46,788 bases of DNA from Candidatus Aminicenantes bacterium (GCA_050124775.1 JASFEP010000001.1:1-46788); one strand, 5' to 3'; positions 1 through 46,788 are shown, counted from the first letter of the stretch. The notes: generated by a model not told the origin, from the sequence alone. Numbers and translations: made by a program.

Positions 1-109
1 ACGAAGGCTTTGTTGTGAGATCAATGCGCCCGAAGGGTAAAAGATGCTGACAATAAGGTATTGAATGATTTGGGAAAAATGAGGTCAGCAGATTTTACGA
101 ATAATCCAG
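1..109 (+). repeat. Copy A of the TIR-bounded structured repeat family, 5'-truncated by the window edge
   Basis: Aligns with copy B (16971-17094). It has the core acgaaggctttgttgtgagatc..cgcccgaagggtaaaagatgc, a hairpin at 39-96 (tgctgac/gtcagca, 32-nt AT-rich loop) and the 3' terminus ttttacgaataatccag. It ends 6 nt before ATG-116 and 21 nt before ATG-131, co-oriented with the kinase gene. Confidence 0.8.
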
Positions 110-130
110 TCATATATGAGGACTTGGACA

Positions 131-3100: not shown

Positions 3101-3427
3101 TTTCTTGTCAACAGCAAACAGGCCATAAAAGACAAGGGAACCATACGCATCTCCACATTTGCGAAAAACAAAAAAGTCCACATCAAGTTTTCCGACGACG
3201 GCGTCGGTATTCCCAAGGAGAGCTTGCGCAGAATATTCGATCCCGGATTCACCACAAAAGGCATCGGTGTCGGCACCGGGCTGGGCCTGTCAATATCCTA
3301 CAACATCATCCAGAACCACAGGGGTGAAATCAAAGTGGAAAGTGAATGGGGAAAGGGGACCGATTTTCTCATCATCCTACCCATGGATCTGGAAGAGCAG
3401 CTTGAAAGAGAAAAGAGCAAGGGTTGA
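131..3427 (+). CDS. Hybrid sensor histidine kinase (REC - PAS repeats - GAF-like - PAS - HisKA - HATPase_c), no transmembrane segment
   Basis: N-terminal receiver (KVLCIDDEEE, DVVLCDLNMPHMDG, K at ...SLKKGAFDF). Several PAS-like blocks and a GAF-like block. H-box AGIAHEINTPIGAV and ATPase boxes DDGVGIP and GVGTGLGLS. ATG-131 is preferred over the track start at 116 because GAGGA lies 8 nt upstream. Confidence 0.9.
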   Translation: MEKIKVLCIDDEEEHREVLRDLLRVKDYSVTTAASGRSGLNLFKRRNFDVVLCDLNMPHMDGLGFLAKAKRIKPDIPVIILSSHGTIPAAVKSLKKGAFDFILEPPKIEEIDATIEKAIETTRLQKQLKASEENLAILIKNLPDIIYSLNPKGIFLELSPAVKTNMGYHPEELIGTSVFKVIHPKDRKRVRETFRAAVERGEARRRRVEFRMVTKKGEVRDYEVHTHMIVENGRVLKAIGIARDITERKIFEEELENKNSQLRDLLEELMRSHDELQAIMDAYPSSMVMVDRKGKLRRANQGTDSFFGIQFDKLVDKPFETFLNTIKSCFEDYDEFLKVSQKMQLTIEQLAYKEFDAVKMYRTSVKQIKPAERFVLPLGIPVFDRNKVELGTIWIYNDITVPKRTYEHLESIVNASPMPVLVSRLSDNTILFVNDNLAKIMGFQRDNVLGKTTPDFYYDPKDRERIREKLEKDGYLHNQEMRVRNADGDPVWVLLSVQIAQIGEEQVAIAGLYDITQRKSVEEAIATRLKYEEGLAACSEALLSGTEMKAEITGALDHLLVASNTSRAYIFENFMDDKDGLCMRQLWEVCAPGVTPQIDNPLLQHLPYKEGLQSWKKSLSQNIPYTGITRFLEPELQKGLEAQDILSILVIPIWINDMWYGFIGFDDVKEERQWSKEDVALLQTASRMIGGYLSRHMALKALQESEERFRGIVENANDIIFTMTPDGNFSYISPNVKEILGFDAIQLTGRHFTKHIHPDDLEVCLNHFHRLEQTGAKQSSIEYRIQHKDKSWRYHRSSVSPLKDSDGNILSYVGIAHDFTEVKNVLTDLEKTNRHLQEAQTQLVQSEKMASLGQLVAGIAHEINTPIGAVNSMHDTLFRTLERLKAIIQQELPEDCKQIPKLEAAFKLIDDSNSVIKSGAERVINIVTRLKSFARLDEAELKTVDIHEGIEDTLVLIHHELKHNITIVKDYGDIPPISCFPSQLNQVFLNFLVNSKQAIKDKGTIRISTFAKNKKVHIKFSDDGVGIPKESLRRIFDPGFTTKGIGVGTGLGLSISYNIIQNHRGEIKVESEWGKGTDFLIILPMDLEEQLEREKSKG

Positions 3428-3452
3428 GAACAATGTTTGACTAAAGGGATCG

Positions 3453-6314
3453 ATGAAAGAACTTTTCCGCAGAATTTTCGACATTCGTGAGGGTGAAGCT
3501 CCTGTCGCCACACTGATGTTTTTTTACGGATTCCTGATTATCGGTTCTCTGTCTGTTCTAAAACCCGTCCGAAGCTCTCTGTTTCTAGTCCGGTTCGGCA
3601 GTGAAAACCTTCCCTTCGCCTATGTGCTCGTAGCGTTCTTTTCGGGCCTATTTGCGGTCGCTTATTCCAGATACTCCAAAAAGGTCCGGCTCAACCGGCT
3701 CGTCCAAATAACGCTTTTGACTTCTTCCGTCACCCTCGTAGTTTTCTGGATAATGCTCCCGTACGCATACGAGAGCACCTGGTTCCTCTATGCCTTTTTC
3801 ATATGGGTTGCGATATTCGGAGTCATCACCGGCACGCAATTCTGGCTCCTCGCCAATGAAATATACAATGCCAGGGAAGCCAAGCGCCTTTTCGGCCTGA
3901 TCGGTGCAGGAGCCATATCTGGGGGGATTTTTGGCGGATATTTGACAAGTTACGCGGCCCCTCGGCTCAGCACGGCGAACATGATATTTTTCTGTATCGG
4001 ATTCCTGGCGCTCTGTCAAATTTTAGTCTGGTCGATCTGGAAAAAAACGAAACATATCCCTCACGTCCAAAAAAGCTCCTGGCAGGAACAGAGGTATCGT
4101 TCTTTAGCTCAGGACAATCCCCTCAAATCCATCTTGAACTCCCGTCATCTGACATATCTCGCCGGGATCATCGGTGTGGGCGTTGTCGTCGCCAACCTCG
4201 CTGATTACCAGTTTTTGACCATCGCATCTCGAGCTAAACCGGAAGCGGACAACCTGACAGCATTCTTTGGTCTTTGGTTGTCCAATCTGAACATCCTATC
4301 TTTGATCATACAAATGTTCTTCACCGGAAGAATTATCAAACATCTCGGCGTGACAGCCTCTCTGCTATTTCTTCCCTGTGCCATTATGATCGGGGCCGCA
4401 GCGGTTCTTATCAATCCGGTCCTCTGGTCGGCCATACTGATCAAGATGGGAGACGGAGGATTTAAACATTCCATCAACAAAGCCAGTACCGAATTGCTGG
4501 CGATTCCCATCTCCCCTGAGATCAAGAACAGAGTCAAATCTTTCATCGATGTCTTTATCAAGAACGCAGCCAAGGGCCTAGGGGGCGTTCTCTTGATTAC
4601 CTTGATCGTCGGCTTCGGACTTTCCGTTCGACACGTCAGTCTGATCATTATTGCAATGATAGGCGTGTGGGCATACCTGATATTCCGAATTAAAGATGAG
4701 TATGTCAATTCTTTCCGCATGGCGATCGAGAAGCGTTCGATAAACCTCGAGGATCAATCGTTGAATCTGGATGATGCGGCTGTGTTTAACAATTTCATCA
4801 AAGTGCTGGAAGGCAAGAACGAACGCCAGATCCTCTATGTGTTGAATATGCTTGAAGATATCAAAAACAAAGAACTCGTTCCTTTCCTCAAAAAACTTGT
4901 TGAATTTCCTTCCGACACGGTCAAAGCTTCTGTATTGAATATGGCTCTTAAATATGAGGATCTGGACCTTTCGTCAGCGGCAAAAAATCTCGTATCCAGT
5001 CACGACTTCAGCGTCCGGGTCGAAGCTATACGATATATCTGTAAAGCCTCATCCGATGCAGCGTCGACACTGCAAAGATTTCTGGAACATGAAAACCCCA
5101 GGATCCAACTGGCTGCGACAACCGCTGCTGCCCTGGAATGGAGAGAAAACAAAGATTTTAGGCAGACCATAAACCTGGTCGACCTATTCCAGAATATGCT
5201 GGGTGAACTTCAGGATAAGGCAGCCGACGCAAAGGAACTAACCTTTGTAAAGATCAACTTAGCCAGGGCCATCGGTCTGGCGAAAAATTCCGGGCTCTAT
5301 CCACTCTTGCACGATTTTGTCGACGATGCGTCAATAGATGTGAAATTAGCTGCGATCACAAGCATTGGCTCAGCATCAGAGAAAGAATTTATCCCGGTCT
5401 TGATCGCACACCTTAACACCAAACATCTCCGCAGACATGTCCGAGAGGCCCTGATTTCTTATGGAGAGGACATCATCGTAATCTTGAGAAAAATCCTCGA
5501 AAATCCCGAAGTGGACAAAGGCAAGAAATTGGCCATCCCTAAGGTATTCGCTATGATCGACTCACAAAAATCGGTCAACAGCCTGATGCAAAACCTTGCC
5601 ATCACGGATCTCACATTGCGTTACGAGATCATTAAAGCACTCAATAAACTCAGGGTTAAATTCCCCACCTTGAAATTCGATCCGCACATCATCCAGACAA
5701 AGGTTCTCGACGAGATCGAACTCTATAAAAGTACACTCCGCGCATGGATCGAGCAAAAGGAAATGTTATTGATAGTTCAACGGAAAAGCAGCGAAAACAC
5801 GATATCCGGGCAAGATAAAAAAGCAAGGCTCCTCCTCTTATTCGCACTCGAAGAGAAACTGGATAAAAACCTGGAGAGGATTTTCCGCCTCCTCGGGATG
5901 AAATATCCGCCCAAGGATATGGTCGACGCCTACCTGGGACTCAAGAGCCGGACCGCAAAGCTGAAGGCGATCGCCATAGAATTCCTGGACAATATTCTCG
6001 ATGCGCGCCTAAAAAGGATCCTTATTCCCATCGTTGAAGCAGGACGCCCTGAACTCCTCTCTAAAAGCGGAACAAGGAGAGCAAGGAAAGAGATAACTGA
6101 AGAGCTCGAATGCATCCGATCCCTACTTTCGAGTCATGACAACTGGCTGAAGGCCTGTACGATCTATCTCAGTGCGGCCTTGTACTACAAAGAGTGTTAC
6201 GACTCGATCCAAGAACTCATCCACTCGGATGATCCCATTGTCAGAGAGACGGCACAACTGTATTTACGCCGTTTAAGCACCCAACCGGATTTGACGACCG
6301 AAGGAAAAGTGTGA
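3453..6314 (+). CDS. Polytopic TLC/AAA-family (ATP:ADP antiporter-like) transporter domain fused to a C-terminal HEAT-repeat domain
   Basis: The N-terminus (REGEAPVATLMFFYGFLIIGSLSVLKPVRSSLFL) is typical of Npt1/Npt2-type TLC carriers, followed by about 11-12 hydrophobic helices. The C-terminal ~500 aa are helical repeats with HEAT-like periodicity (VRVEAIRYI, IDVKLAAITSIG, PIVRETAQLYL). Confidence 0.7.
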   Translation: MKELFRRIFDIREGEAPVATLMFFYGFLIIGSLSVLKPVRSSLFLVRFGSENLPFAYVLVAFFSGLFAVAYSRYSKKVRLNRLVQITLLTSSVTLVVFWIMLPYAYESTWFLYAFFIWVAIFGVITGTQFWLLANEIYNAREAKRLFGLIGAGAISGGIFGGYLTSYAAPRLSTANMIFFCIGFLALCQILVWSIWKKTKHIPHVQKSSWQEQRYRSLAQDNPLKSILNSRHLTYLAGIIGVGVVVANLADYQFLTIASRAKPEADNLTAFFGLWLSNLNILSLIIQMFFTGRIIKHLGVTASLLFLPCAIMIGAAAVLINPVLWSAILIKMGDGGFKHSINKASTELLAIPISPEIKNRVKSFIDVFIKNAAKGLGGVLLITLIVGFGLSVRHVSLIIIAMIGVWAYLIFRIKDEYVNSFRMAIEKRSINLEDQSLNLDDAAVFNNFIKVLEGKNERQILYVLNMLEDIKNKELVPFLKKLVEFPSDTVKASVLNMALKYEDLDLSSAAKNLVSSHDFSVRVEAIRYICKASSDAASTLQRFLEHENPRIQLAATTAAALEWRENKDFRQTINLVDLFQNMLGELQDKAADAKELTFVKINLARAIGLAKNSGLYPLLHDFVDDASIDVKLAAITSIGSASEKEFIPVLIAHLNTKHLRRHVREALISYGEDIIVILRKILENPEVDKGKKLAIPKVFAMIDSQKSVNSLMQNLAITDLTLRYEIIKALNKLRVKFPTLKFDPHIIQTKVLDEIELYKSTLRAWIEQKEMLLIVQRKSSENTISGQDKKARLLLLFALEEKLDKNLERIFRLLGMKYPPKDMVDAYLGLKSRTAKLKAIAIEFLDNILDARLKRILIPIVEAGRPELLSKSGTRRARKEITEELECIRSLLSSHDNWLKACTIYLSAALYYKECYDSIQELIHSDDPIVRETAQLYLRRLSTQPDLTTEGKV

Positions 6315-16797: not shown

Positions 16798-16872
16798 CGA
16801 ACTGGTGTATCGCTCTTTATGCGACTCACATAAATAAATCAGAAATTTCTGTCGAAATCAAGCTTTTCACTC

Positions 16873-17094
16873 CTGGAGTGCTCACGAGCTAAGGCCTCTC
16901 GATTCCTCCCATCCCAAAAGGCGAGGCAGTGGCCCTTGATGATGGTGTGAACTCCCTCGAAAGGGCTACAACGAAGGCTTTGGTGCGAGATCGGCTCGCC
17001 CGAAGGGTAAAAGATGCTAACATTAAGATAAAGAATTTTCCTTTATGTGGGTTCGTTGCTAAAAGTTTGTTAGCATCTTTTATGAATAATCCAG
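16873..17094 (+). repeat. Copy B (full length, 222 bp) of the TIR-bounded structured repeat family
   Basis: Degenerate 5' TIR ctggagtgctcacgag and 3' TIR ttttatgaataatccag. Core as in copies A, E2, D and C. A perfect 14-bp hairpin aaaagatgctaaca/tgttagcatctttt spans 17009-17081 with a 45-nt loop. The element ends 3 nt from the TAA stop (17098-17100) of the convergent OMP gene. Confidence 0.85.
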
Positions 17095-17097
17095 GAA

Positions 17098-17754
17098 TTA
17101 GAATCGAAAAGAAAGCCCTACAACAGCACTCAAGCTATTGACATTTTTGGGGTCGGCAAAGATCATCACATACCGAGCATCCAGCCTCAACGCCACGTTG
17201 CCGCTCATAAAAAAATTCAAGCCGGCGCCAAAGTTGGCTACGGCATCCAAGGTTTTCTCCGGGGCTTCGAGGGTGATCGAAAAACCATAGTCCGAGGTGT
17301 AAGTGGCGTCCTCTGCCAGGAGTTTGTCAACGCCTCCTCCGGCCAGAATATAAGGCCTTATCTTTCCGCCCGAAAACTGGTAGACAAGGTTCAGGGTCAA
17401 GGAATAATGCTTGGACGAATCGATCTCTACGGTATCTTGGTCGGACGGGTCTTCGAGTGTCACTTTCGAAGACAGCACATACCGCCAATCCAACTCTAGT
17501 CCCAGATTCTCGGTAAAGAAATAGCCCAAGGACGCACCCAAAGCTGGAGGCGTATGGGAAGGAGTGACGGGAAAATCGTTCTCGCCGAGAGCATAATCAT
17601 CCTCTGAACCGTATTCGAAGACATGGTTGAGTCCACCAAACACAGAAAATTGGAATTTTTGGGCATGCGCAGTGCCGGTCAGAAGGGAAAGAGCAAACAC
17701 GATACATACCAAAACAACCCAAGAGTTTTTGTTCACAGGTGTGCTTTTCGCCAT
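17098..17754 (-). CDS. Outer-membrane beta-barrel protein (OmpA-beta/OmpW-like small barrel)
   Basis: Signal peptide ...LSLLTGTAHAQ, alternating amphipathic strands and a C-terminal ...GLSFRF. ATG-17754 has AAGAGG upstream. The track start at 17775 is TTG. Confidence 0.75.
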   Translation of the reverse strand: MAKSTPVNKNSWVVLVCIVFALSLLTGTAHAQKFQFSVFGGLNHVFEYGSEDDYALGENDFPVTPSHTPPALGASLGYFFTENLGLELDWRYVLSSKVTLEDPSDQDTVEIDSSKHYSLTLNLVYQFSGGKIRPYILAGGGVDKLLAEDATYTSDYGFSITLEAPEKTLDAVANFGAGLNFFMSGNVALRLDARYVMIFADPKNVNSLSAVVGLSFRF

Positions 17755-17868: not shown

Positions 17869-18486
17869 CTAATATCTTTTGTCTTTCAACGGATAGAGAT
17901 CCGCTGTGCTCTTTTTCCATTTTCCGTTTTGAAGGACCCACCTGTGAAATATCTTTTCCGGATCGCTGCTCTTCGCATGGAGGATTCTCTCATCGGGAGA
18001 GGGAACTTTTTGTTCGTCTCCGTCACTCTCTTCAAAGGCTGAAATAAACCTCAAGATCGTCTCAGGCTCCACATGATAGGACACAACATCAACAACAGCC
18101 ATATCGCCCGAGAAATGAATGCCCAACACATCAAAAAGAACAGGACGAAAATGAAACTTCCAAAACTTGGGTGTCGGACCCACCCAAATGACCATCTCCG
18201 AATCCATCACGAAGAACCAATCCTCAAGTCTCTTCATCCGGTTGAACACTTTCCCCAACCTCTCGGTCTCCATGTCTTCAGGGATCCCGTATCTGCTGTA
18301 CTTTTCGATGAGCATTTTCCGTTCGGCTCCTGTGCTGAAGGAGCTAATAAAGTTGTAGCTTTTGTAGAATTCAGAGATCTGAGGAGGTAAAACCGGAGTT
18401 TCGGTTCTGATGTTATCGCTATGCGCACGGATCGATGGAAAAAACAGACCGATGGATAAAAGTCCCAAAACAAGCGTTTTTTTCAT
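17869..18486 (-). CDS. Hypothetical secreted protein
   Basis: Signal peptide MKKTLVLGLLSIGLFFPSIRAHS. No family recognised. Confidence 0.55.
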   Translation of the reverse strand: MKKTLVLGLLSIGLFFPSIRAHSDNIRTETPVLPPQISEFYKSYNFISSFSTGAERKMLIEKYSRYGIPEDMETERLGKVFNRMKRLEDWFFVMDSEMVIWVGPTPKFWKFHFRPVLFDVLGIHFSGDMAVVDVVSYHVEPETILRFISAFEESDGDEQKVPSPDERILHAKSSDPEKIFHRWVLQNGKWKKSTADLYPLKDKRY

Positions 18487-18957: not shown

Positions 18958-18981
18958 CTTATCCACCTCCTCACAGATTAT

Positions 18982-19187
18982 CTGAGTTATTCATAAAAGT
19001 AGCTGACAGCTATTTTTACTAACACAATTTAATTTTTAATGTCAGCCTATTGCCTCGGAGGCGGACCGACTCACGCCAACACCTTCATTGGTGCCCATTT
19101 GATTGATCGCCCCACATCTTCATGGGTGACGGCTTCGACCTTTGTGAACGGGTGGGGTGGGTTGGCCTCGCTCCGTAAATAATCCAT
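18982..19187 (-). repeat. Copy C (full length, minus orientation) of the TIR-bounded structured repeat family
   Basis: In reverse complement it reads atggattatttacgg ... gaagccgtcacccatgaagatg ... hairpin gctgaca/tgtcagc ... cttttatgaataactcag. It is the most diverged copy. It sits between the NYN gene stop and the small membrane gene start, co-oriented with both. Confidence 0.75.
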
Positions 19188-19217
19188 CTATTCGCTGAAT
19201 TATATAAAAAGCAAAAA

Positions 19218-23077: not shown

Positions 23078-25342
23078 ATGGATAATTTCGCTCGTGCACT
23101 CCTAAGAAAAGTGACCGTTGCCCTCTTGGCGTCTGCGACTGCGCTGACCCTTTACTTCTACGGATATCAAGAACAAAAGGAGCTTCTTCCTCAGGAAAAA
23201 TATGAAGTCAAGGTCCGCCTTATCCTGGTCGATGTGATCGTCACCAAGGACGGCGAATTCGTGAAGGACCTCTCCAAAGAGGATTTCGAGCTCTATGAAG
23301 ACGGCCGGAGAGTGCCCATCAACTCCTTCGAGCTCATAAGCTTCGACCAGAGGGAATTGAACGTCCCCGAGGACATGAGCCCGCAAGACCGGTCCAAAAC
23401 TCCCAAAAAGAGGCTGGCTGTCGTCTTCGACAGCATCACCTCTTGGAAGAGGGAGATGAAACACGGCAGCACCCAGATCGTTGACGACCTTGTGTCTATC
23501 GTTAAACTCGGTCATGAGGTCATGATCCTGCAGCTCAATCCCGTAAAGGGGATCGAGATCATCCAACCCTTCACCACGAACGAGGACCTCATAAGGAATT
23601 CCGTCGAGAGGGCCTCAGGAAGCATCTGGAAACTGGAAACTCAGATCGAATCATCCCGCGTCGAAGAAACAGAGACTGAACTAGAAACCCAGGCACAGCC
23701 CGAAGCAGTGACCACGCCCAGTGAACGCACAGAGATCGAACAAGCTCTAGCCAGCACGTTCTTCGAAGATATGCAACGGATCGATTTTATACACAGAGAG
23801 AGACTGAGGTTTGAAAAAACTGTGGGAGGACTGCTAGCCGCATTCAACTTGATGAGAGGTTTCCCCGGAAGAAAATACATCCTCCTCGTGAGCGCGGGCA
23901 TCCCGGACCTCTCGCCTCCGGATATGTTTCCCAATATCCGGAGCGGAATACCGGGTGAAGAGATCGACCGCGCTTACATCAACAAAATCTGGGGCAAGAT
24001 GGAAGACATCCGGGTTTTCGATCCGTTCAACATCCTGGATAAAAACAACTTCAAAAACGGCGAGGAAGTGCTCCGGGAGATCATCGAATTCGCCAATGCT
24101 CAAAATATCTCCATTTATTCCTTCGACAGCAGCATTTTCGTAAAAAACATCTTTTCCGGAGCTTCAGCCGAACATTACCAGCAGAATGAAATGGATCATT
24201 TCAGGTTCCGCCAGGGAGACAAACTCAGAAAAATCCAGAACCTCCGGTGGCTATCCGAGGATACTGGGGCGGATTCATTGCGTGGTGCGAACAAACTGAC
24301 TGAATTCCAGAAGGTCATGGATACAGACTTGAATTATTATTACCAGCTGAGTTTTTATCCCCGCAGGGATGAAGCGGACGACCACTATCACGAAATCAAG
24401 GTCAAAGTGAAGCGGGATGGCGTGGACACCCGTTTCAGAAAGGGATATACCGACTACTCGGACAATGAGATGGACAAGATGGTCCTGGTGACCGCTTTTT
24501 ACAATCCCGAACTCTTCAAAGAGCTGCCTTTCGAGGGTGTACTTGTTCCCTTCGTTTCCGAATCCGGGAAATACGAGCCCTGGATGAATATCGCACTCCC
24601 CGTAAAGGAGATCATCGAGGACAGGTTTGTGGAGTATGCCCCAAAAGTTTTTCATCTCCACATCTGGCTGAAGGACAGAACCAGTGGAGAAAAAGGCTTT
24701 GGCGGCAAGATCAACATCGGCTTGAATTTGAGCCCCAAGTTCATGGAATTCATCCAAAATATCGATTACCTCAGCTATCATTTCAAGGGGCCGGAGATCG
24801 AATTCCGGAACAAGGAATACCAGAGTGTGTTCGCTCTCTTCGACCCTCAAACGAGCGAGATCGGCACCTGGGATACCCACGTTCGTTTTCCCGCCATCGA
24901 AGAGATAGATGAACACGTTATCATAAACTGCGTTCTTGGTGACCTGACGGAAAATCCAGAAAAAGAAAAAAAGAGATTTCTCCTATCCAAAAAAGATGGA
25001 GGGCTGATCTGCGGCGAGCACAAATTCTATCCCAAAGTGACCAACCAATTCGATAGATGGGGTGAAGCTTCCGTCTTTGTGCAGGCCCACTTCCCCGAGG
25101 GAAAAAAGAGCCTTCAACCCGAATTCTACTCCAGGAACACAGAGATGCGTGTCAATCCCATAGAGGGAGAGCTGGTGGTCGATTCATGGAACACAAAGAC
25201 CAAGATCTGGAGCGGCCTCTACAAACTCGATTTCAGCCCCTGTTCTCTCGGCGACAATTCGCTTTTCGTTGAATTTTCTGGGTCCGATGTTGGGTCTGAG
25301 CTTTATTTGAGTAGGGAACTCAAGATGTCCATCATCCGCTGA
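23078..25342 (+). CDS. Large secreted or anchored VWA-domain protein with an N-terminal 'VWFA-related acidobacterial' type domain
   Basis: VKVRLILVDVIVTKDGEFVKDLSKEDFELYEDGRRVPINSFEL resembles the TIGR03436-type N-domain, followed by a VWA-like RLAVVFDSITS... block. ATG-23078 has AAGGTG upstream and is followed by a TM/signal segment. The track start is TTG. Confidence 0.65.
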   Translation: MDNFARALLRKVTVALLASATALTLYFYGYQEQKELLPQEKYEVKVRLILVDVIVTKDGEFVKDLSKEDFELYEDGRRVPINSFELISFDQRELNVPEDMSPQDRSKTPKKRLAVVFDSITSWKREMKHGSTQIVDDLVSIVKLGHEVMILQLNPVKGIEIIQPFTTNEDLIRNSVERASGSIWKLETQIESSRVEETETELETQAQPEAVTTPSERTEIEQALASTFFEDMQRIDFIHRERLRFEKTVGGLLAAFNLMRGFPGRKYILLVSAGIPDLSPPDMFPNIRSGIPGEEIDRAYINKIWGKMEDIRVFDPFNILDKNNFKNGEEVLREIIEFANAQNISIYSFDSSIFVKNIFSGASAEHYQQNEMDHFRFRQGDKLRKIQNLRWLSEDTGADSLRGANKLTEFQKVMDTDLNYYYQLSFYPRRDEADDHYHEIKVKVKRDGVDTRFRKGYTDYSDNEMDKMVLVTAFYNPELFKELPFEGVLVPFVSESGKYEPWMNIALPVKEIIEDRFVEYAPKVFHLHIWLKDRTSGEKGFGGKINIGLNLSPKFMEFIQNIDYLSYHFKGPEIEFRNKEYQSVFALFDPQTSEIGTWDTHVRFPAIEEIDEHVIINCVLGDLTENPEKEKKRFLLSKKDGGLICGEHKFYPKVTNQFDRWGEASVFVQAHFPEGKKSLQPEFYSRNTEMRVNPIEGELVVDSWNTKTKIWSGLYKLDFSPCSLGDNSLFVEFSGSDVGSELYLSRELKMSIIR

Positions 25343-25534
25343 GATGATTTATTTGTAAAAACCGTCGATACCATCTATTAATACACTTATCGTTTTAATA
25401 ACTATCGGCATTTTTTACCTAAAGGCGAGTCGATCTCACCACAAAGCTTTCGTTGCAACTCACTCGCGGTAGTCCGCTACAGCTTCATGAGCCACTTCCT
25501 CACCGCTACTGCAACCTTGGTCCGAGAATAATCC
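25339..25534 (-). repeat. Copy D (minus orientation) of the TIR-bounded structured repeat family
   Basis: In reverse complement it reads ggattattctcgg...ggtgaggaagtggctcatgaagctg...acgaaagctttgtggtgagatcgactcgcc...hairpin ccgata/tatcg(a)cgg...tttttacaaataaatcatctcag. Its last 4 nt (tcag) are the complement of cTGA, which includes the stop of the convergent VWA gene (25340-25342). Confidence 0.8.
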
Positions 25535-25558
25535 TTTTTTTTATCTAACTGAGGTGGA

Positions 25559-30122: not shown

Positions 30123-30150
30123 GGGGCCTCGAAAGAGGCCCTTTTTTTTT
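30123..30150 (+). terminator. Rho-independent terminator of the ECF/DUF4097 operon
   Basis: GC stem gggcctc-gaaa-gaggccc followed by nine T. The T-run continues directly into a repeat-family 3' end fragment. Confidence 0.85.
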
Positions 30151-30224
30151 ATGAATGATTCATCTCACAGATGGATTATTCATTTAAATTTGGCAGCAGA
30201 TTTTATGAATGATTCATCTCACAG
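30147..30224 (+). repeat. Two head-to-tail repeat-family fragments: E0 (3' end only, 30147-30170) and E1 (54-bp mini-element, 30171-30224)
   Basis: E0 reads ttttatgaatgattcatctcacag. E1 is atggattattca joined to tttaaatttggcagcagattttatgaatgattcatctcacag. 39 nt of E1 are identical to the 3' end of E2 (30384-30422). Confidence 0.8.
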
Positions 30225-30423
30225 ATGGATTATTCACGAGTCGAGCTCGCTGCAGATGCAAGGCGTCGGCCCGTGAAGACGTGGTCGTCCACTTCGAAGG
30301 GGCCGCAACGAAGCAGATGCGGTGAGATCGGCTCGCCTGAAAGGGAAAAGATGCTGCCAATTCGATGAGAAAAGGTTTTAGAGTTTAAATTTGGCAGCAG
30401 ATTTTATGAATGATTCATCTCAG
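30225..30423 (+). repeat. Copy E2 (full length) of the TIR-bounded structured repeat family
   Basis: atggattattcacgag ... ggcgtcggcccgtgaagacg ... acgaagcagatgcggtgagatcggctcgcc ... hairpin 30346-30405 (tgctgccaa/ttggcagca, 30-nt loop) ... ttttatgaatgattcatctcag. The terminal tca (30420-30422) is the complement of the TGA stop of the convergent oxidoreductase gene. Confidence 0.85.
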
Positions 30424-36184: not shown

Positions 36185-36264
36185 CTTACAGTTTCTCCTG
36201 AAATGAAAGTCAATCGACCTTAAGAATTGTATACAAATAAAAAGGCACTGTCACCTTTTAAATC

Positions 36265-36351
36265 CGAATTATTCACGGGCCGATATCGCAGCAAAGGTGA
36301 GGCAGTGGCCCCTGAAGATGGTGTGAACTCCCTTTTTTATGAATAATTCAG
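36265..36351 (+). repeat. Copy F (87-bp internally deleted derivative) of the TIR-bounded repeat family
   Basis: cgaattattcacggg...ggtgaggcagtggcccctgaagatggtgtgaactccc is near-identical to copy B 16917-16954 (2 mismatches) and is joined directly to ttttttatgaataattcag. The terminal tca (36348-36350) is the complement of the GT2 gene's TGA stop. Confidence 0.8.
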
Positions 36352-37115
36352 TAGGGGAAGATCCGTTCGCCCTTCTTCCATATCTCCTTCAACTTCGCAT
36401 AACGGACGAACACGGAGTAACCGTGAAGAGTCGCTACCACAAAACCCGCAAAGCCATCCAGGATCCCCGCTCTCCAGATATAGGACTTGAAGAAGTTCAG
36501 AAAGGGGACGACTGCCAGATGATACCAGCGGCATTTTTTCTTTTTTGCATACAATTTTTGCGCGCCCAGGTCAGAAAAGGTATTGATGCGCTCCAGATGA
36601 TCCCGGATACTCCGGTAGGTGAAATGATGAAGGGATCCCTTGAGAGGAACGACCTTTCCTTGGATGACCAGGGATTCGTGTATGTACTCTCCCTCCCAGC
36701 GGGCGCTCGACTTCCGGAAGAGCCGCAGTTTTCTGTCCGGATACCAGCCACCGTGACGGATCCATCGGCCCAGGTAGTATGTCTGTCGCGGCATCGTGAA
36801 ACCGGAACATTCCGGTTCCCCCTCTTTGAGCGCGATGATCTCTTCCTTGAGCTCGGGGGAAACCCTCTCATCGGCATCTAGAGAGAGAATCCAGGGATAG
36901 GATGTTTTGCTGTTCCCGAAATTTTTCTGGTCGGCAAAATTGGTCCATTTTCTCTGGAAAACAAGGTCCGTATATTTTTTTGCGACCTTTACCGTATCGT
37001 CGTCGCTGAAACGGTCGACCACTACGATCTCGGAGGCGATATCGGCGACGCTTTTGAGAGCCGCCTCCAGCCTTCTCTCTTCGTTGTAGGTTATGATAAC
37101 AACAGAGACATCCAT
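36348..37115 (-). CDS. Family-2 glycosyltransferase
   Basis: VSVVIITYNEERRL, VVVDRFSDDDT and LSLDADERV (DxD) match GT-A/GT2. ATG-37115 is used because the track start is GTG-37124. Confidence 0.85.
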   Translation of the reverse strand: MDVSVVIITYNEERRLEAALKSVADIASEIVVVDRFSDDDTVKVAKKYTDLVFQRKWTNFADQKNFGNSKTSYPWILSLDADERVSPELKEEIIALKEGEPECSGFTMPRQTYYLGRWIRHGGWYPDRKLRLFRKSSARWEGEYIHESLVIQGKVVPLKGSLHHFTYRSIRDHLERINTFSDLGAQKLYAKKKKCRWYHLAVVPFLNFFKSYIWRAGILDGFAGFVVATLHGYSVFVRYAKLKEIWKKGERIFPY

Positions 37116-39035: not shown

Positions 39036-41402
39036 ATGGTCAAGACATTCGGGCGCTTTTTCCCTCTTTTTTTAATCTGGGCATGTCTTCTCGGTCTTTT
39101 TTTTCTCTACGCCGGCCAGGGAAAAAGTTTTTCGATGGAAGACCATTCCTTCCATCTCTCCGTGCTCCCTTTAATCTTACTGACTTCACTCTTTCTCCTT
39201 GTAATCGGAGGAACATGGGTTCTCACCGCCAAAATTTTGAGTTCTACCTTTGCGATCCCCTATCGATACTCACTCTCTCTCGACCTCCTGAACTATCTGC
39301 CGCTTTTCTATCTGCTGCTTTTCCCTCTCGTCAGCGTCCACTACCTGAGTTCCACGGACCTCATCATACGCCTAAGACTCCTCGGATCTGCGATTCTTTT
39401 TTCTGTGGTCTTTCTCAAGGGAGCGACTGCGTGTATCCTAGCCCACGGCAAATCACAAAAATTCGATTGGAACATCCAAAAGATCGCATCTCTGTCTCTC
39501 AGAAAAAAACTTGTCCTTCTTTTTGTTGCGGCTCTTATTCTTTATGGCGCGGGTTCAGCCGTACTTGTCAGGAAGGGGATAAACCTTTCCGGGGATGAAC
39601 CCCACTACCTTCTCATCTCCCACAGTGTGATCAAAGACGGGGATTTCGACCTTTCCGATAACTACGCCAACATGGATTACTCAACGATCATGCCTCCAGG
39701 CGTCCGGATATCGCCCCACATCGCTCCCGGAACCGGAGGCAAATATTCCTTCCATTCGCCAGGGTTATCTCTCCTTCTTCTTCCCTTCTATGCTCTCGGA
39801 TCACTGTTCGAAAGAACAACGATGCTTTTTATCATCCGGTGCGGCATGGGAGTGTTCGGAGCCCTCCTCGGACTCCAGATCTTTCTGTTCGCCCTTGAAG
39901 AATGGAAAAAGGAAGGTCTGGCTTTCGGCCTCTGGGCTCTCTTTTCCTTCACTTCGCCGGTGTTTTTCTACTCCATCCACGTGTATCCCGAGATCGTAGT
40001 CGCTCTGTTTTCTCTCACAGCCTTCCGTCTTCTGCGCTTCAAGCGGTCATTCGCCGAATTCCATCTCCTGGGTCTTGGATTACTCCTCTCTGCGATCGTC
40101 TGGCTCCACGCCGTGAAGTATGTGTTCATCATGGTTCCTCTTTTCCTTTACGCCCTCTGGGTTCTCATCATCAAACAAAAGATTCGATGGGGGATCCTTC
40201 ACTTTTTGTTTTTCCCCATCTGTTCGTTCGGCCTTCACATCGGCTTCTCCTCTGCGTTTTACAATTCGGTCTCACCCTTCGCTGTATCCATACGGGGACC
40301 GTCGCCAGCGGCAGAATCTATCAGCTACGTCCGCTCGCTTTTTGTGGATATTCCCCTCCGATACAGGTGGGAGACGCTGTGCGGCTATTTCCTGGACCAA
40401 AGGGATGGGTTGCTCCTTTACGCCCCTCTCTACTTTTTCGCCTTCCTGGGAATGATAGAAATGGGCAAACGAAGGTCTCGCGATCTCACCCTGATTCTCT
40501 TTCTTACCGGATTCTACATCCTCAACCTGGCTTTTTTGACACAGAGGCCGGCTTATGCTCCCCAGGCAAGGACCTTGGTCGCCGTTTTTTGGGGTATGGC
40601 CGTATTTTTGGGTTACTTCCTGGCCTTCAACGCAAAAAAAATATTCACTTATTTATTCTCTTTGTTCGCTTCTTTCAGCGTTCTCGCGACGCTCTTGCTC
40701 CTTCGAACCCCTCGCGCACTCTACCAGCCCACAACAGCGGGAGAGACGGAAAGGGCGGGCCTGCTATTTCTTCAACTCAGCAATCTCCATTTTTTTCTGC
40801 CCAAATTCCTGCCGTCATTCTTAAAGGTCGAGGATTCTTTCTGGCTGCCCAACTTGCTTTGGATCGTTCTCTCTGTCCTTTTTGTCCTGGCATATGTCTT
40901 CACTAAAAAACACGCCTTCCCAGCCAAGTATTCCCACTTTGTGTCAGGAGTCATGATAGGACTCGGCGTGTTTTATCTCTGGTTCGTTTTTTATCCGAGG
41001 ACAGTCGTGGTCCACCCTCAAAACATCACGTATCCTGGGGGAGAAAAGGTCACCTTTTATGCCTACAGCCGTTCGGCACGGATGACGGCCCCAGGGGTTT
41101 TCGACCTCATCGAAGACAACCGCCTCTACAGTTTCTACCTTTCCTCATGGCGCAAACTCCCCGAATTTCGCCTCGGCCTCGGTGCGGAGAGGGGCGTCTA
41201 CAAAGCCGAGGTCAAGTACTTCGACACAACCATCTTTCAAGAGCAAATAAGTGCGGAAGTCAAAACTTTGCATTTTCCTCCAACCCCTCCCTATAAACTC
41301 AGAAACCAGAACCTTTACCACATCAGTATCTATCTCGAAAACTTGTCAGATGCCGATACTCAGAAATCTCCCTTCCTTTTTTCCATCCTTCCCACTAGAT
41401 GA
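39036..41402 (+). CDS. Large polytopic membrane protein, GT-C-fold glycosyltransferase-like (first of two tandem paralogues)
   Basis: About 14 or more hydrophobic helices. The first large loop carries SGDEPHYLLISHSVIKDGDFDLSDNY (an acidic DE motif placed as in GT-C enzymes). FLDQRDGLLLYAPLYFFAFLG is conserved. A soluble C-terminal ~200 aa follows. Confidence 0.5.
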   Translation: MVKTFGRFFPLFLIWACLLGLFFLYAGQGKSFSMEDHSFHLSVLPLILLTSLFLLVIGGTWVLTAKILSSTFAIPYRYSLSLDLLNYLPLFYLLLFPLVSVHYLSSTDLIIRLRLLGSAILFSVVFLKGATACILAHGKSQKFDWNIQKIASLSLRKKLVLLFVAALILYGAGSAVLVRKGINLSGDEPHYLLISHSVIKDGDFDLSDNYANMDYSTIMPPGVRISPHIAPGTGGKYSFHSPGLSLLLLPFYALGSLFERTTMLFIIRCGMGVFGALLGLQIFLFALEEWKKEGLAFGLWALFSFTSPVFFYSIHVYPEIVVALFSLTAFRLLRFKRSFAEFHLLGLGLLLSAIVWLHAVKYVFIMVPLFLYALWVLIIKQKIRWGILHFLFFPICSFGLHIGFSSAFYNSVSPFAVSIRGPSPAAESISYVRSLFVDIPLRYRWETLCGYFLDQRDGLLLYAPLYFFAFLGMIEMGKRRSRDLTLILFLTGFYILNLAFLTQRPAYAPQARTLVAVFWGMAVFLGYFLAFNAKKIFTYLFSLFASFSVLATLLLLRTPRALYQPTTAGETERAGLLFLQLSNLHFFLPKFLPSFLKVEDSFWLPNLLWIVLSVLFVLAYVFTKKHAFPAKYSHFVSGVMIGLGVFYLWFVFYPRTVVVHPQNITYPGGEKVTFYAYSRSARMTAPGVFDLIEDNRLYSFYLSSWRKLPEFRLGLGAERGVYKAEVKYFDTTIFQEQISAEVKTLHFPPTPPYKLRNQNLYHISIYLENLSDADTQKSPFLFSILPTR

Positions 41403-41451: not shown

Positions 41452-43824
41452 ATGCAGAAATCCAGATTCCTCCTTCTTTTTGTGCTACTTATCTTATTTT
41501 CTCTGGGCCTGTCCTATTTTGTGGGGCTCTATTCCCAAGCTTCATCCTTCACGATTCTCGATCATGGTTTTCGACTCTCCCCCGCCCTTTTTCTGGTTTT
41601 TTTGCTCGTCTTTTGCCTTCTGCTTTTCGCATGGCTCCTGCTCACCCGCACGGAACGCAGGATCCGCAGCGAACGCAGCATCCCCCTCTGGAGCAATTTC
41701 CTCTCCTTTGTTCCTCTCGGCTTTTTCCTGCTCACTCCCTTGATCCTGAGCCACTATCTGGACAGGGGTGACTTGAGGACAAGGCTGAATGTATTCCTCA
41801 TTTCTGTTGCTCTCTGCGTCCTTTACCTCCTCCTTTTGCACTGGGATAGAGTCCTTGGTCTCACCTCGGCCATAGACAAATCCATTCAGTCATTCCATCG
41901 GCTTTCGTCCAGAAAAAAATTGGTACTCCTCTTTGTCATCGCTTTTCTTGTATACATCCTATTCACGTTTGTCCTGGTCTCACAAGGGATCACGTTTTCG
42001 GGTGATGAACCTTACTACCTCCTCACAGCCCACAGCCTCCTCGAAGATAAAGACATCAACGTAGCCAACAACTACGCACAGGAGGATTACTTTTCTTTTT
42101 ATTCCAAAGACAAAAACCCCAGGTTTAGACTGGGCATGTATGCGCGCGAAGGGAAAAAAGGCCCGGATTATATCTACCCGATAAACTTGCCCGGAGTGTC
42201 GGTGCTGGTGCTGCCTTTCTACGGGGCGAGCCGGAATTTCAGCGGCGATCTCTTGACCTTCATCCTCAAAGGGAGCCTTGCGATCTGGGCCGTTTTTCTG
42301 GGCCTTCAACTCTATCTGCTTGCCAGGGAACAGTGGGGAGATGAGAAAATTTCGCTTCAGCTCTGGCTGTTCTACTCGTTCTCTGCACCCGTTCTATTCT
42401 TCGCCACTCATCTCTATTCCGAAGTCCCCATCGCCCTTTTCTCGATATATATTTTCAGGAAGCTCCGCTCCCAAAAAACCCTCTCGATCTTCCACTATCT
42501 CTTTATGGGCCTTCTCCTCTCTTCCTTTTTCTGGTTCGGCCTCAAGTACAACTTGCTTTTCGGGACTCTGTTTCTTGTCTCGCTGTATTACCTCTTCAAA
42601 GAACGCAAGGCCGGGATCAGAATCCTTTCTTTTATCCTGTTTCCCCTTCTTTCCCTGATCCTTTTTTACACGTTCATCCACTCCATCTATGGCACCTTCT
42701 CTCCCTTCTCCGTTTACGAGGGTGTTCTCACTCCGGAAAGGCTGCAGGCGTTTAAGGATGCGGCCTTAAGTGCGCCTCTATCCATGAGATTCGATACCTT
42801 GTTCAACTATTTTCTCGACCAGAGGGACGGCCTTTTGCTCTACTCTCCCTTCTATGTATTCGCCTTTTTGGGTTTCGTAGAGATCTTCCGGAGGTCGAAA
42901 AGAGATTTTTTTATACTTCTCTTCATCCCCGCCCCGTATCTTCTGAACTATGCCTTTTTTACCCACCGCCAGGGTTACAGCCCTCAGGGGAGAATCCTCA
43001 CGCCTGTCTCCTGGATTTTGGCGTTGGCCGTGGGTTATTTTCTCATTCACAATCGGAAGAAGCTCTATACGTTTCTGTTCTGGTTTCTGAGTATGATGGG
43101 AGTCGCCATCGCCATCTATCTGCTCTTTCATCCCCATTCCCTCTACCAGCCGACAACGAACGAATTCACATCACGGGCCGGAGAGATGTTCGTTCATCTC
43201 AGCAACATGTACATCTTCCTTCCTCATTATCTGCCTTCTTTCATCAAGGTCGACAACATGGGCTACGTCCCCAACTATCTCTGGATCCTGGCAATCGCTT
43301 TATTCGTCTGTGTCTATGCCTTTATCAAGAGGGACATTCGGGTCAAAAAAACCTTTTATTATGCCTTTGCTCTGTCTCTCCTCCTTATCGCTTTTTTGCT
43401 CTGGGTGCTTTTTCCCACGCCGAGCCTCCATGACACACGGACATTCAACTACTCATCCCAGATGGCCTTGGGATATTACCTTTTCCCCATGGGAGACGGT
43501 GTCGTCGTTAAAAAAACAGCGGAGTTCTACCTCCATAAGGAAAAAACCTACAGGATATTGTTCAGTTCGCGAAGGCCACGCGAAAATTTCGAGCTGAATT
43601 TTGGATCGGAGAAGGGAGAATACGAGGTTCGCCTCAGCTTTTTCGACTTGCCGATCTTCGAGGGTAAGACATCTTATGCGAAAAGGGCCGTCGCGCTCGA
43701 ACCCTCCGCCTATTATCTGTACAAGGGTTTATACCTGTACGAGATCTTTTTGGATCTGAAAAAGCGCTCCACTGAATCCATGCTCGTCGATCCCTACTTT
43801 TTCCAGATCGTCCCGATCAAGTAA
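41452..43824 (+). CDS. Large polytopic membrane protein, GT-C-fold glycosyltransferase-like (second tandem paralogue)
   Basis: Same layout as the preceding gene: SGDEPYYLLTAHSLLEDKDINVANNY and FLDQRDGLLLYSPFYVFAFLG. GGGAGAG ribosome-binding site. Confidence 0.5.
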   Translation: MQKSRFLLLFVLLILFSLGLSYFVGLYSQASSFTILDHGFRLSPALFLVFLLVFCLLLFAWLLLTRTERRIRSERSIPLWSNFLSFVPLGFFLLTPLILSHYLDRGDLRTRLNVFLISVALCVLYLLLLHWDRVLGLTSAIDKSIQSFHRLSSRKKLVLLFVIAFLVYILFTFVLVSQGITFSGDEPYYLLTAHSLLEDKDINVANNYAQEDYFSFYSKDKNPRFRLGMYAREGKKGPDYIYPINLPGVSVLVLPFYGASRNFSGDLLTFILKGSLAIWAVFLGLQLYLLAREQWGDEKISLQLWLFYSFSAPVLFFATHLYSEVPIALFSIYIFRKLRSQKTLSIFHYLFMGLLLSSFFWFGLKYNLLFGTLFLVSLYYLFKERKAGIRILSFILFPLLSLILFYTFIHSIYGTFSPFSVYEGVLTPERLQAFKDAALSAPLSMRFDTLFNYFLDQRDGLLLYSPFYVFAFLGFVEIFRRSKRDFFILLFIPAPYLLNYAFFTHRQGYSPQGRILTPVSWILALAVGYFLIHNRKKLYTFLFWFLSMMGVAIAIYLLFHPHSLYQPTTNEFTSRAGEMFVHLSNMYIFLPHYLPSFIKVDNMGYVPNYLWILAIALFVCVYAFIKRDIRVKKTFYYAFALSLLLIAFLLWVLFPTPSLHDTRTFNYSSQMALGYYLFPMGDGVVVKKTAEFYLHKEKTYRILFSSRRPRENFELNFGSEKGEYEVRLSFFDLPIFEGKTSYAKRAVALEPSAYYLYKGLYLYEIFLDLKKRSTESMLVDPYFFQIVPIK

Positions 43825-46668: not shown

Positions 46669-46788
46669 TGAAAAGGGAGACAGACTCCGTTATCAAAATG
46701 GGGACTGGCTCCATTATCAAAATGGGGACTGGCTCCGCTGTCAAAATGGGGACTGGCTCCGCTGTCAAAATGGGGACTGGCTCCGAAA
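46669..46788. repeat. 24-bp head-to-tail tandem repeat, at least 5 units, truncated by the window end
   Basis: Unit tcaaaatggggactggctccgctg starts at 46693, 46717, 46741 and 46765. Unit-to-unit differences fall only in the last 4 nt. A degenerate unit (17/24) lies at 46669-46692. The array begins 54 nt upstream of the tsaD ATG. Confidence 0.9.

Follow-up and report, generated by a model that had tools for sequence, protein, structure and literature searches.

A 46,788-nucleotide stretch of DNA (46.8 kb; here called the window) from Candidatus Aminicenantes bacterium contains, at positions 30346-30405, a hairpin with an AT-rich loop that belongs to a longer, repeated sequence. According to the original prediction, made from the window alone, the stems of this repeat covary around a loop that differs in every copy, selection acts on a single-stranded sense form, and a conserved scaffold presenting a variable loop might, as pure speculation, resemble the layout of a guide or recognition RNA. 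The locus raises the questions of what kind of element carries the hairpin, on which form of the molecule selection has acted, and what the variable loop contributes. We find that the hairpin is helix P4 of a repeat copy, here called E2, and is the variable arm of a non-coding mobile repeat of ∼200 nt.

Copies of the repeat in the window and beyond

Seven full or partial copies of the repeat, A, B, C, D, E2, E1 and F, lie in the window (Table 1). The hairpin interval of E2 consists of AAAAGATGCTGCCAA, an AT-rich stretch of 29 nt and TTGGCAGCAGATTTT. The P4 arms that had been quoted for the individual copies are all present: TGCTGAC/GTCAGCA in A, a perfect 14-bp AAAAGATGCTAACA/TGTTAGCATCTTTT in B, TGCTGCCAA/TTGGCAGCA in E2, GCTGACA/TGTCAGC in C and CGATA/TATCG in D. 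Copy C carries a C-rich mini-insert, GGCCAACCCACCCCACCC, within the 5' arm of P1. In the deleted copy of E1, the 5' end CAGATGGATTATTCA is fused to the last 39 nt of E2, positions 30183-30221 being identical to 30384-30422.

Table 1. Repeat copies in the window and the helices of copy E2.
Feature	Position	Strand	Description
Copy A	1-114	+	3' part only (model positions 86-203), 81.7 bits; 5' part lost to window start
Copy B	16871-17099	+	Covariance model 122.9 bits; degenerate 5' arm, perfect 14-bp P4 base
Copy C	18977-19189	-	57.6 bits; most diverged copy
Copy D	25339-25538	-	149.5 bits; ortholog in L005 at 18109-18309
Additional motif X upstream of copy D	25570-25554	-	
E1	30147-30221	+	Extra motif X, then internally deleted copy
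Extra motif X (3' end motif of the repeat) in E1	30147-30167	+	TTTTATGAATGATTCATCTCA; directly after terminator of upstream gene
Copy E2	30223-30423	+	196 bits; full length, best preserved of the window copies
Copy F	36263-36352	+	Internal-deletion derivative; 5' end through P2 5' half joined straight to TTTTATGAATAATTCAG
E2 helix P0	30227-30236/30407-30416	+	Covariance-model column mapping
E2 helix P1a	30237-30244/30328-30335	+	Covariance-model column mapping
E2 helix P1b	30247-30259/30313-30325	+	Covariance-model column mapping
E2 helix P2a	30267-30274/30298-30305	+	Covariance-model column mapping
E2 helix P2b	30278-30284/30289-30295	+	Covariance-model column mapping
E2 helix P3	30336-30338/30342-30344	+	Covariance-model column mapping
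E2 helix P4	30346-30405	+	A4/T4 base, 8-bp stem TGCTGCCA/TGGCAGCA, AT-rich loop of 32 nt

Pfam and NCBIfam scans identified the 31 large ORFs of the window as ordinary chromosomal genes, among them genes for a PAS histidine kinase, an IcmF-like mutase, PurM, an ECF sigma factor with its anti-sigma factor, outer-membrane proteins, TsaD and an acidobacterial VWA protein. None of the 31 matched a transposase, recombinase, reverse transcriptase, Cas protein or guide-RNA-type nuclease in these scans, and no integrase, Y1 or RAYT gene was found near the repeat copies of the window in ORF scans.

The gene beside E2 encodes an FAD/CCG oxidoreductase, and a search anchored on this protein led to Candidatus Aminicenantes MAGs at 89-92% amino-acid identity. 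The repeat is present in the closest of these (L005, L006 and L008) and also in L022 and L024. Short contigs of the same organism break at the repeat, one Logan contig (L004) ending inside it. A DNA-pattern scan of metagenomes matched at least 120 loci, and an nhmmer search returned 171 matches, which include 96 full-length copies and whose lengths cluster at ∼195-215 and 250-258 nt. A covariance model built from 21 copies then gave 116 strong matches in a first set of 100 sources and 35 in another 100, so that the family comprises at least 150 further copies from Aminicenantes MAGs and metagenomes. A pattern match in a viral contig (L205) was taken to be a chance one, the covariance model having missed it among the sources searched (E up to 1e-5).

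The family is confined to a sub-clade, since the covariance model gave just one weak match when applied to 75 protein-anchored loci of other Aminicenantes and further phyla. Rfam 15 gave no match over the whole window, and copies E and B, searched in E-value mode, stayed far below the gathering thresholds. In the literature we found nothing relevant on the terminal sequences of the repeat and nothing on repeats of Aminicenantes.

Predicted fold, covariation and strand asymmetry

RNAalifold, applied to a MAFFT alignment made from sequence only, returned 58 pairs, 33 of them with compensatory changes. The sense strand is predicted to fold as a four-way junction made up of P0, a long P1-P2 arm, a 3-bp P3 and P4; the junction follows from the spacing of P0, P1, P3 and P4, which meet with 0-1 linker nt. 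In P0 the two ends of the element pair with each other (GGATTATTCA/TGAATAATYC); it is 94% paired, and seven of its ten pairs change on both sides. P1a and P1b together form a long-range helix of the 5' arm with the 'core' ...GTGAGATCGGCTCG, and the P1-P2 arm carries conserved purine-rich internal loops. The second stem that had been proposed to covary (GTGGCCC/GGGCTAC and variants) corresponds to helix P2a, where copy D does have three G·T pairs, and P2b is the inner part of the P2 hairpin. P3 is the 3-bp hairpin CCC-GAA-GGG. The base pairs of P4 at 357-360/553-556 (A4/T4) are 96% paired, and all eight distal pairs have changed on both sides somewhere in the 116 copies.

Pairing across the family far exceeded that of shuffled controls. 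Among the 116 model-aligned copies, 94.0% of cells were paired (85.7% in shuffles), and 42 of the 58 pairs showed double-side changes (24.7 in shuffles); neither value was reached in any of 500 shuffles. When the partners were slid by one to three columns, just 34-50% of cells were paired. The structure-blind MAFFT-only alignment of 21 copies gave the same result, with 96.1% of cells paired and 33 double-change pairs as against 14.8 in shuffles (0/500 reaching the observed value). The covariation of the arms, first noticed in the few copies of the window, is a property of the family and gains much in strength when the larger copy set is used. One stem does not share in it. GGTGAG/CTCGCC, which had been taken for a conserved core stem, shows no covariation, the observed value being equal to the shuffled one (374/500), and two of its six pairs fail to form in 33-51% of copies; its bases instead pair long-range with the 5' arm, in P1a and P1b.

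The pairs are also strongly asymmetric between the strands. G·U occupies 602 paired cells and A·C 83, a ratio of ∼7:1; at least 10% G·U is seen in 13 pairs and at least 10% A·C in one, and several pairs alternate between U-A, U·G and C-G without A·C intermediates. The sense strand is the more stable in 91 of 97 copies (mean -90.8 kcal/mol, compared with -70.5 for the antisense strand, a difference of ∼20), and in all 97 with DNA energy parameters. For copy E2 the fold energy is -92.3 kcal/mol (z = -7.0) on the + strand and -62 kcal/mol (z = -3.2) on the - strand. At the same loci the covariance model scores 57-220 bits in the sense and 22-38 bits in the antisense direction. The strand-specific G·U pairs noticed in the window copies are confirmed. 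Because the G·U/A·C ratio, the energy gap and the strand-specific model scores all point the same way, the proposal that selection has acted on the single-stranded sense form, rather than on duplex DNA, is well supported.

The loop of P4 behaves differently from what the window copies had suggested. Its length ranges from 29 to 95 nt and is bimodal across 104 copies, with classes of 30-33 nt and 88-94 nt. The long loops form deep families, of which one groups 20 members and contains an internal 13-bp hairpin. Loops of one type turn up repeatedly, at many loci that are unrelated to each other and across different metagenomes. Nor are the loops of the window without similarity to other copies, as had been claimed: the loops of A and B agree in their 5' part, and the loop of E2 shares 72% identity with that of its L190 ortholog, 62% with that in L006 and 50% with that in L005, against 72-78% for the remaining element. 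In the copy in L008, P4 is duplicated. When the five window loops were searched against the window and 2.1 Mb of related DNA, they had no matches, complementary ones included, other than at homologous loop positions. From the shared loop types, the ortholog identities and the lack of other matches, we conclude that loops are passed on with their subfamily and change faster than the core, and there is no sign that they specify a target. With loop types that follow the subfamily, no targets in the 2.1 Mb of related DNA and no enzyme gene in the window, the likeness to a guide or recognition loop is not supported.

Transposon-like features of the repeat

Most of the 96 copies aligned at both ends have the termini 5' CCTGGATTATTCA ... 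TGAATAATTCAGG 3', which form 13-nt inverted repeats. The element is 195-300 nt long (mostly 195-260) and has no coding capacity. Among 55 canonical copies, i.e. those without an extra end motif upstream, 14 are flanked by an exact 4-nt direct repeat, whereas 2000 permutations gave 3.4 on average and never more than 10. Only this length gives a signal (two matches at k = 3 and none at k = 5), and a perfect duplication is kept in just ∼1/4 of copies. Both flanks are mainly TTAA, TTAG, CTAA or ATAA, and the duplicated tetramers also include TACA, TTCA and GAAA.

The repeat is intergenic, in either orientation, and a stop codon adjoins ∼24 of 64 copies. Tetramers of the TTAA/TTAG type hold TAA or TAG on one strand, so that the duplication can regenerate the stop codon of a neighbouring gene, and often does. 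In the window, the 3' end of copy B, which is antisense to both neighbouring genes, lies 3 nt from the stop codon of an outer-membrane protein gene (17098-17100). The stop codons of the convergent genes are contained in the terminal ATCTCAG of copy D (25340-25342) and in the repeated 3' end block of E2 (30420-30422), and that of a glycosyltransferase gene in the terminal repeat of copy F (36348-36350).

Related genomes differ in whether they carry a given copy. At the site that follows the FAD/CCG gene, the window, L005, L006, L008 and L190 all contain the element, L007 has just a solo X motif, placed immediately behind the terminator of the upstream gene, and L009 contains neither element nor motif. 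An extra 3' end motif (X) is found 2-7 nt upstream of the 5' end in about one-fifth of copies, E1/E2 being one case, and this arrangement resembles head-to-tail junctions or their remnants. Internally deleted derivatives (E1 and F in the window) and tandem derivatives also occur. The terminal inverted repeats, the target duplication and the deletion derivatives had not been noticed in the original prediction.

The repeat is thus small (below the limit of ∼500 bp set for MITEs) and non-coding, has inverted repeats and a duplication of fixed length, and exists in many dispersed copies that vary in presence or absence, features that match the definition of MITEs and its comparators (PMC3049150, PMC3184786). 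We consider that it is probably a non-autonomous MITE-type element, multiplied in one sub-clade of Candidatus Aminicenantes. ERIC in the Enterobacteriaceae, Correia/CREE in Neisseria, RUP in S. pneumoniae and bcr1 in the Bacillus cereus group are MITEs with folded transcripts (PMC3049150, PMC3184786). Like these, the Aminicenantes repeat is 100-300 bp long, non-coding, intergenic and multi-copy, with a short target duplication, ends whose inverted repeats are predicted to pair with each other, a predicted RNA structure that is tightly paired and, as is often the case, an obscure mobilising enzyme (PMC3049150, PMC3184786). It differs from them in having no sequence similarity, in occurring in another phylum and in its 4-bp duplication (TTAA/TTAG) rather than TA. 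Its predicted fold is a 58-pair four-way junction with conserved internal loops, not a simple long hairpin, and it has quantified covariation at the level of subfamilies, with the ∼7:1 excess of G·U over A·C. In the pneumococcal BOX element (boxA-boxB(n)-boxC) the end modules pair and the middle module varies in number and length while the fold is kept (PMC3049150). The Aminicenantes repeat is modular in a similar way, with P4 in versions of ∼31 and ∼90 nt and duplicated in L008; unlike in BOX, the variable part is the distal end of one hairpin arm rather than a tandem box, and there is no sequence relationship.

A search of 2.1 Mb of related DNA revealed no autonomous partner and no transposase with matching ends. 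Where inverted repeats were paired at a distance of 0.6-6 kb, they belonged to neighbouring MITEs or fragments, and two candidate partners (L022:13103 and L146:173) were truncated 5' ends beside ordinary genes. ORF families present at several loci encoded ABC ATPases and housekeeping or metabolic enzymes. The ends and the 4-5 bp duplication may resemble those of the IS1380 family. From the inverted repeats and the target duplication, we infer that a DDE-type transposase making 4-bp staggered cuts might move the element in trans.

Selection on the fold and alternative explanations

Pairing is preserved between subfamilies through compensatory and G·U-mediated changes. We asked how individual copies change after insertion by collecting private changes, those found in at most two copies and differing from the nearest relative, and taking them as post-insertion. 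Substitutions per column were 1.02 at paired and 0.98 at unpaired positions, and private single-side changes of Watson-Crick pairs gave 28 A·C, 20 G·U and 55 other mismatches, although these counts may include assembly errors in multi-copy repeats, which would add neutral-looking noise. Since private changes are equally frequent in paired and unpaired columns and show no preference for G·U, inserted copies seem to decay neutrally, and it is the differences shared within subfamilies that appear to preserve pairing. The faster divergence of the loop than of the core in orthologs may nevertheless reflect some constraint or gene conversion acting on the core of inserted copies.

These patterns suggest that the fold would be needed only in proliferating lineages, the inserted copies then decaying. 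The form in which it acts would most likely be RNA, carried by read-through transcripts from source copies, and less likely a stage of single-stranded DNA. P4 could be a tolerated expansion arm whose loop either drifts fast or comes as subfamily modules of ∼31 or ∼90 nt, and which would carry no locus-specific information.

Orientation gives little further guidance. Of 64 copies, 18 lie between convergent and 15 between divergent genes, and those between co-directional genes comprise 20 in the sense and 11 in the antisense direction. Adjacent copies share their orientation in 18 cases and are opposed in 11, and the copies of the window run + + - - + + under a monotonic GC skew. No bias relative to genes or to neighbouring copies was significant, so there is no support for a purely mRNA-embedded role or for a role of single-stranded DNA that depends on the replication strand. 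The lack of a clear bias relative to neighbouring genes weakens a simple role in host mRNAs.

A DDE cut-and-paste or copy-and-paste mechanism offers no obvious reason for a strand-specific internal fold, a point that sits uneasily with the assignment to MITEs. One tentative and rather unlikely explanation is that the sense-strand four-way junction is required for the propagation of the element itself, either as RNA (a template, a cofactor or a recruiter of the enzyme) or as a folded single-stranded DNA intermediate. It takes its lead from the preservation of pairing between proliferating subfamilies, the 7:1 ratio of G·U to A·C, the apparently neutral decay of inserted copies and the fact that no parent with the 5' domain was seen. 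To our knowledge, propagation that depends on RNA or on folded single-stranded DNA, together with inverted repeats and a target duplication, has not been described for bacterial MITEs.

Alternatively, though we think this improbable too, the repeat could be what remains of an insertion-sequence leader. The segment from P0 to P3, with the base of P4, would then derive from the 5' UTR, ribosome-binding site and start of a transposase mRNA, the P4 loop would mark the former site of the gene, and the MITE subfamilies would be repeated internal deletions of an evolving parent in which, rather than in the MITEs, the fold was selected, for example because it hid the start codon in read-through transcripts. 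IS10 and IS50 provide a precedent, in that inverted repeats near the left end of the element sequester translation starts. In ∼90% of copies, a conserved GAAGGG at the P3/P4 boundary is followed 6 nt on by an AUG, which is paired inside P4, and the variable region lies exactly between this AUG and the 3' end. The T-tract after P4, and a constraint that acts between subfamilies and is absent from private changes, would also be accounted for. What speaks against such an origin is that the longest ORF starting at the conserved AUG has 51 codons in ∼100 occurrences of the 5' domain, that no transposase-like multi-copy ORF family was found in the 2.1 Mb of related DNA, and that loops fall into two narrow length classes, where random remnants of deletion would be scattered. 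A micro-ORF within P4 (MLTIRY and similar) was set aside, its length and frame not being conserved.

A mobile element that moves as single-stranded DNA, in which an HUH or tyrosine-type enzyme would act on the sense fold, as in IS200/IS605, REP/RAYT or integron attC, is a less probable alternative. It could draw on the DNA parameters, which favour the sense strand in every copy analysed, on G·T being the most stable DNA mismatch, and on the X motif often being repeated immediately before the 5' end, a loose parallel to targets that look like the end of the element itself. PATE elements derived from IS200/IS605 have subterminal hairpins and strand-biased insertion, and lack inverted repeats and target duplication. 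Here, both inverted repeats and a varied 4-bp duplication are present, which are absent from the IS200/IS605 family, and copies occur in both orientations on a contig without strict bias. The P4 arms (GCTGACAA/TTGTCAGC or GCCGAT/ATCGGC) do not fit the attC core sites RYYYAAC/GTTRRRY, and, unlike attC sites, which lie beside an integrase or in a cassette array, the Aminicenantes copies are dispersed, with no integrase in the window and no Y1 or RAYT gene nearby.

The speculation from which we started, that the repeat is a family of small-RNA genes, trans-acting or serving the host, in which a scaffold presents a variable recognition loop, is very unlikely. Strong strand-specific covariation, conserved internal loops, a 3' hairpin followed by a T-tract and a loop that is the most variable part would all be expected of such a family. 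It would not be expected to lack a conserved promoter, the sequence 5' of the element being instead the variable target site, nor to show rare single-copy changes that do not preserve structure, identical loop types at many loci, loops without complementary matches in the 2.1 Mb of related DNA, and many truncated or internally deleted copies. The bridge RNA of IS110 and the omega RNAs of IS200/IS605 are encoded beside a recombinase or nuclease; in each case the variable parts complement the target or donor DNA. The Aminicenantes repeat is like them in being a structured, sense-strand, non-coding sequence of ∼150-250 nt tied to a mobile element, but no enzyme gene adjoins it, its loop follows the subfamily rather than the locus, no target was found in the 2.1 Mb, and there is no Rfam match.

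A bidirectional terminator or REP-like insulator maintained by the host, in which P4 and its A- and T-tracts stop transcription both ways, is highly improbable. The A4-stem-T4 layout, which had prompted this comparison, is indeed conserved and 96% paired, and the 18 copies between convergent genes and the many that adjoin stop codons would suit it. An intrinsic terminator is defined by a GC-rich stem, a loop of 3-8 nt and a run of at least five T directly after it; P4 has just T4 after the stem, with a 2-nt spacer, and because its loop (29-95 nt) is far longer than 8 nt, a scan was silent on P4 of E2 and B, yet it called the canonical terminator that the gene upstream of E keeps at 30123-30142. 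Moreover, the consensus fold pairs the T-tract with the A-tract, 15 of 64 copies lie between divergent genes, and the conserved 140-nt 5' domain would be left unexplained. A terminator-like repeat enriched at the 3' ends of convergent genes has been described (PMC3049150), from which the present one differs in that P4 is one arm of a larger fold, with a loop too long for a canonical terminator. Retron and tRNA-like readings were dropped on the grounds that no reverse transcriptase is present and that the copies are too numerous.

The repeat is best taken as a new, highly structured MITE family, and the function of its strand-specific fold is the sole part that could prove unusual. As far as the literature and Rfam show, this is the first high-copy repeat family described for Candidatus Aminicenantes, an uncultured sediment phylum; the covariance model can be used to annotate it, and the repeat would account for contig breaks in metagenome assemblies. 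It also carries a caution, in that a scaffold with a variable loop, seen in a few copies, mimics a guide RNA until the wider family is sampled. Insertion at TTAA/TTAG with regeneration of the stop codon illustrates how such elements fill compact genomes while leaving genes unbroken. Finally, the family offers an unusually clean case of a mobile repeat whose strand-specific fold has been kept by compensatory evolution between subfamilies, and it poses the question of why a MITE needs a single-stranded fold.

Differences in the variable arm and signal-like motifs near it

We compared copy D (window 25339-25538) with its ortholog in the related locus L005 (18109-18309), and the two have derived core features in common, with a core identity of 76%. 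These orthologs nevertheless differ strongly in P4, the variable arm of the predicted sense-strand four-way junction, whose distal stem and whose loop are of the GCCGATA type versus the GCTGACA type. This difference fits either rapid compensated divergence of the arm or its exchange between copies. In a further related locus, L008, the ortholog of copy E2 (3267-3482) carries a tandem pair of P4 hairpins separated by a run of N. The variable arm has either been genuinely duplicated there or only seems doubled through misassembly.

At window 30336-30351, and at equivalent positions of other copies, the 3' half of the P3 helix is a Shine–Dalgarno-like GAAGGG, followed after 6 nt by an AUG that is kept in about 90% of copies and is paired within P4. 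The ORFs starting at this AUG range from 1 to 51 codons and show no conservation. In one family with long P4 loops, a promoter-like motif (TTGATC/TTGCTC, a 16-nt spacer and TAATAT) faces the element's 3' end.

Coordinates and locations of features in the window and in related loci
Feature	Location	Strand	Context
Stop codons at repeat 3' ends	window 30420-30422, 25340-25342, 36348-36350, 17098-17100		convergent genes
Tandem array of 24-nt unit AAAATGGGGACTGGCTCCGCTATC	window 46671-46785, reaching window end		upstream of divergent tsaD
Two adjacent paralogous genes, ~790 aa each	window 39036-41402 and 41452-43824
C-rich mini-insert GGCCAACCCACCCCACCC	window 19167-19150	-	inside copy C
C-rich mini-insert GGCCAACCCACCCCACCC	L097, L110, L125, L137, L157, L170, L184, L199		other loci
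18-nt insert CCGACCCAACCTAACCCG	L110, L123, L137, L192, L199, L204; e.g. L137:7868, L137:7934		P2 3' side, some copies
Promoter-like motif	L196:1447-1703, L087:1-251, L201:144-404		P4 loops

Inserts within copies and other repeats

Part of the 5' arm of the P1 helix is replaced by the C-rich mini-insert in 13 copies, usually with TAACATTAAGG after it. The same mini-insert is found outside the repeat family, in loci L062, L011 and L142, and may be a smaller nested repeat. In L137 and L199, an element with the 18-nt insert also has the reverse complement of that insert, located on the 3' strand of P1, so such copies could form an extra helix.

In the tandem array the 24-nt unit is repeated at least 4.8 times, with 91% matches, and its 12-mer AAAATGGGGACT recurs in two members of the repeat family, L151 and L158, where it lies in the P4 loop. 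The paralogous pair, for which there was no Pfam match, is conserved in L005, L022 and L024, and one of its members weakly resembles the putative glycosyltransferases LA_3751/LA_3752.

Insertion sites and gene ends

When the orthologous locus of E2 in L007 (5846-5870) was compared with that in L006 (4996-5210), L007 was seen to retain just the 13-nt end motif ATGAATAATCCAG, flanked by the T-tract of an upstream terminator and by a convergent stop codon. This solo motif may mark a place where recombination between a pair of end motifs removed an element, or else a target site that is unoccupied.

Four convergent genes in the window have a stop codon that falls inside the 3' end of a repeat copy or no more than 6 nt from it, and family-wide a stop codon adjoins about 24 of 64 copies. 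This arrangement fits an element that inserted into TTAA/TTAG at gene ends, the stop codon being restored by target duplication.
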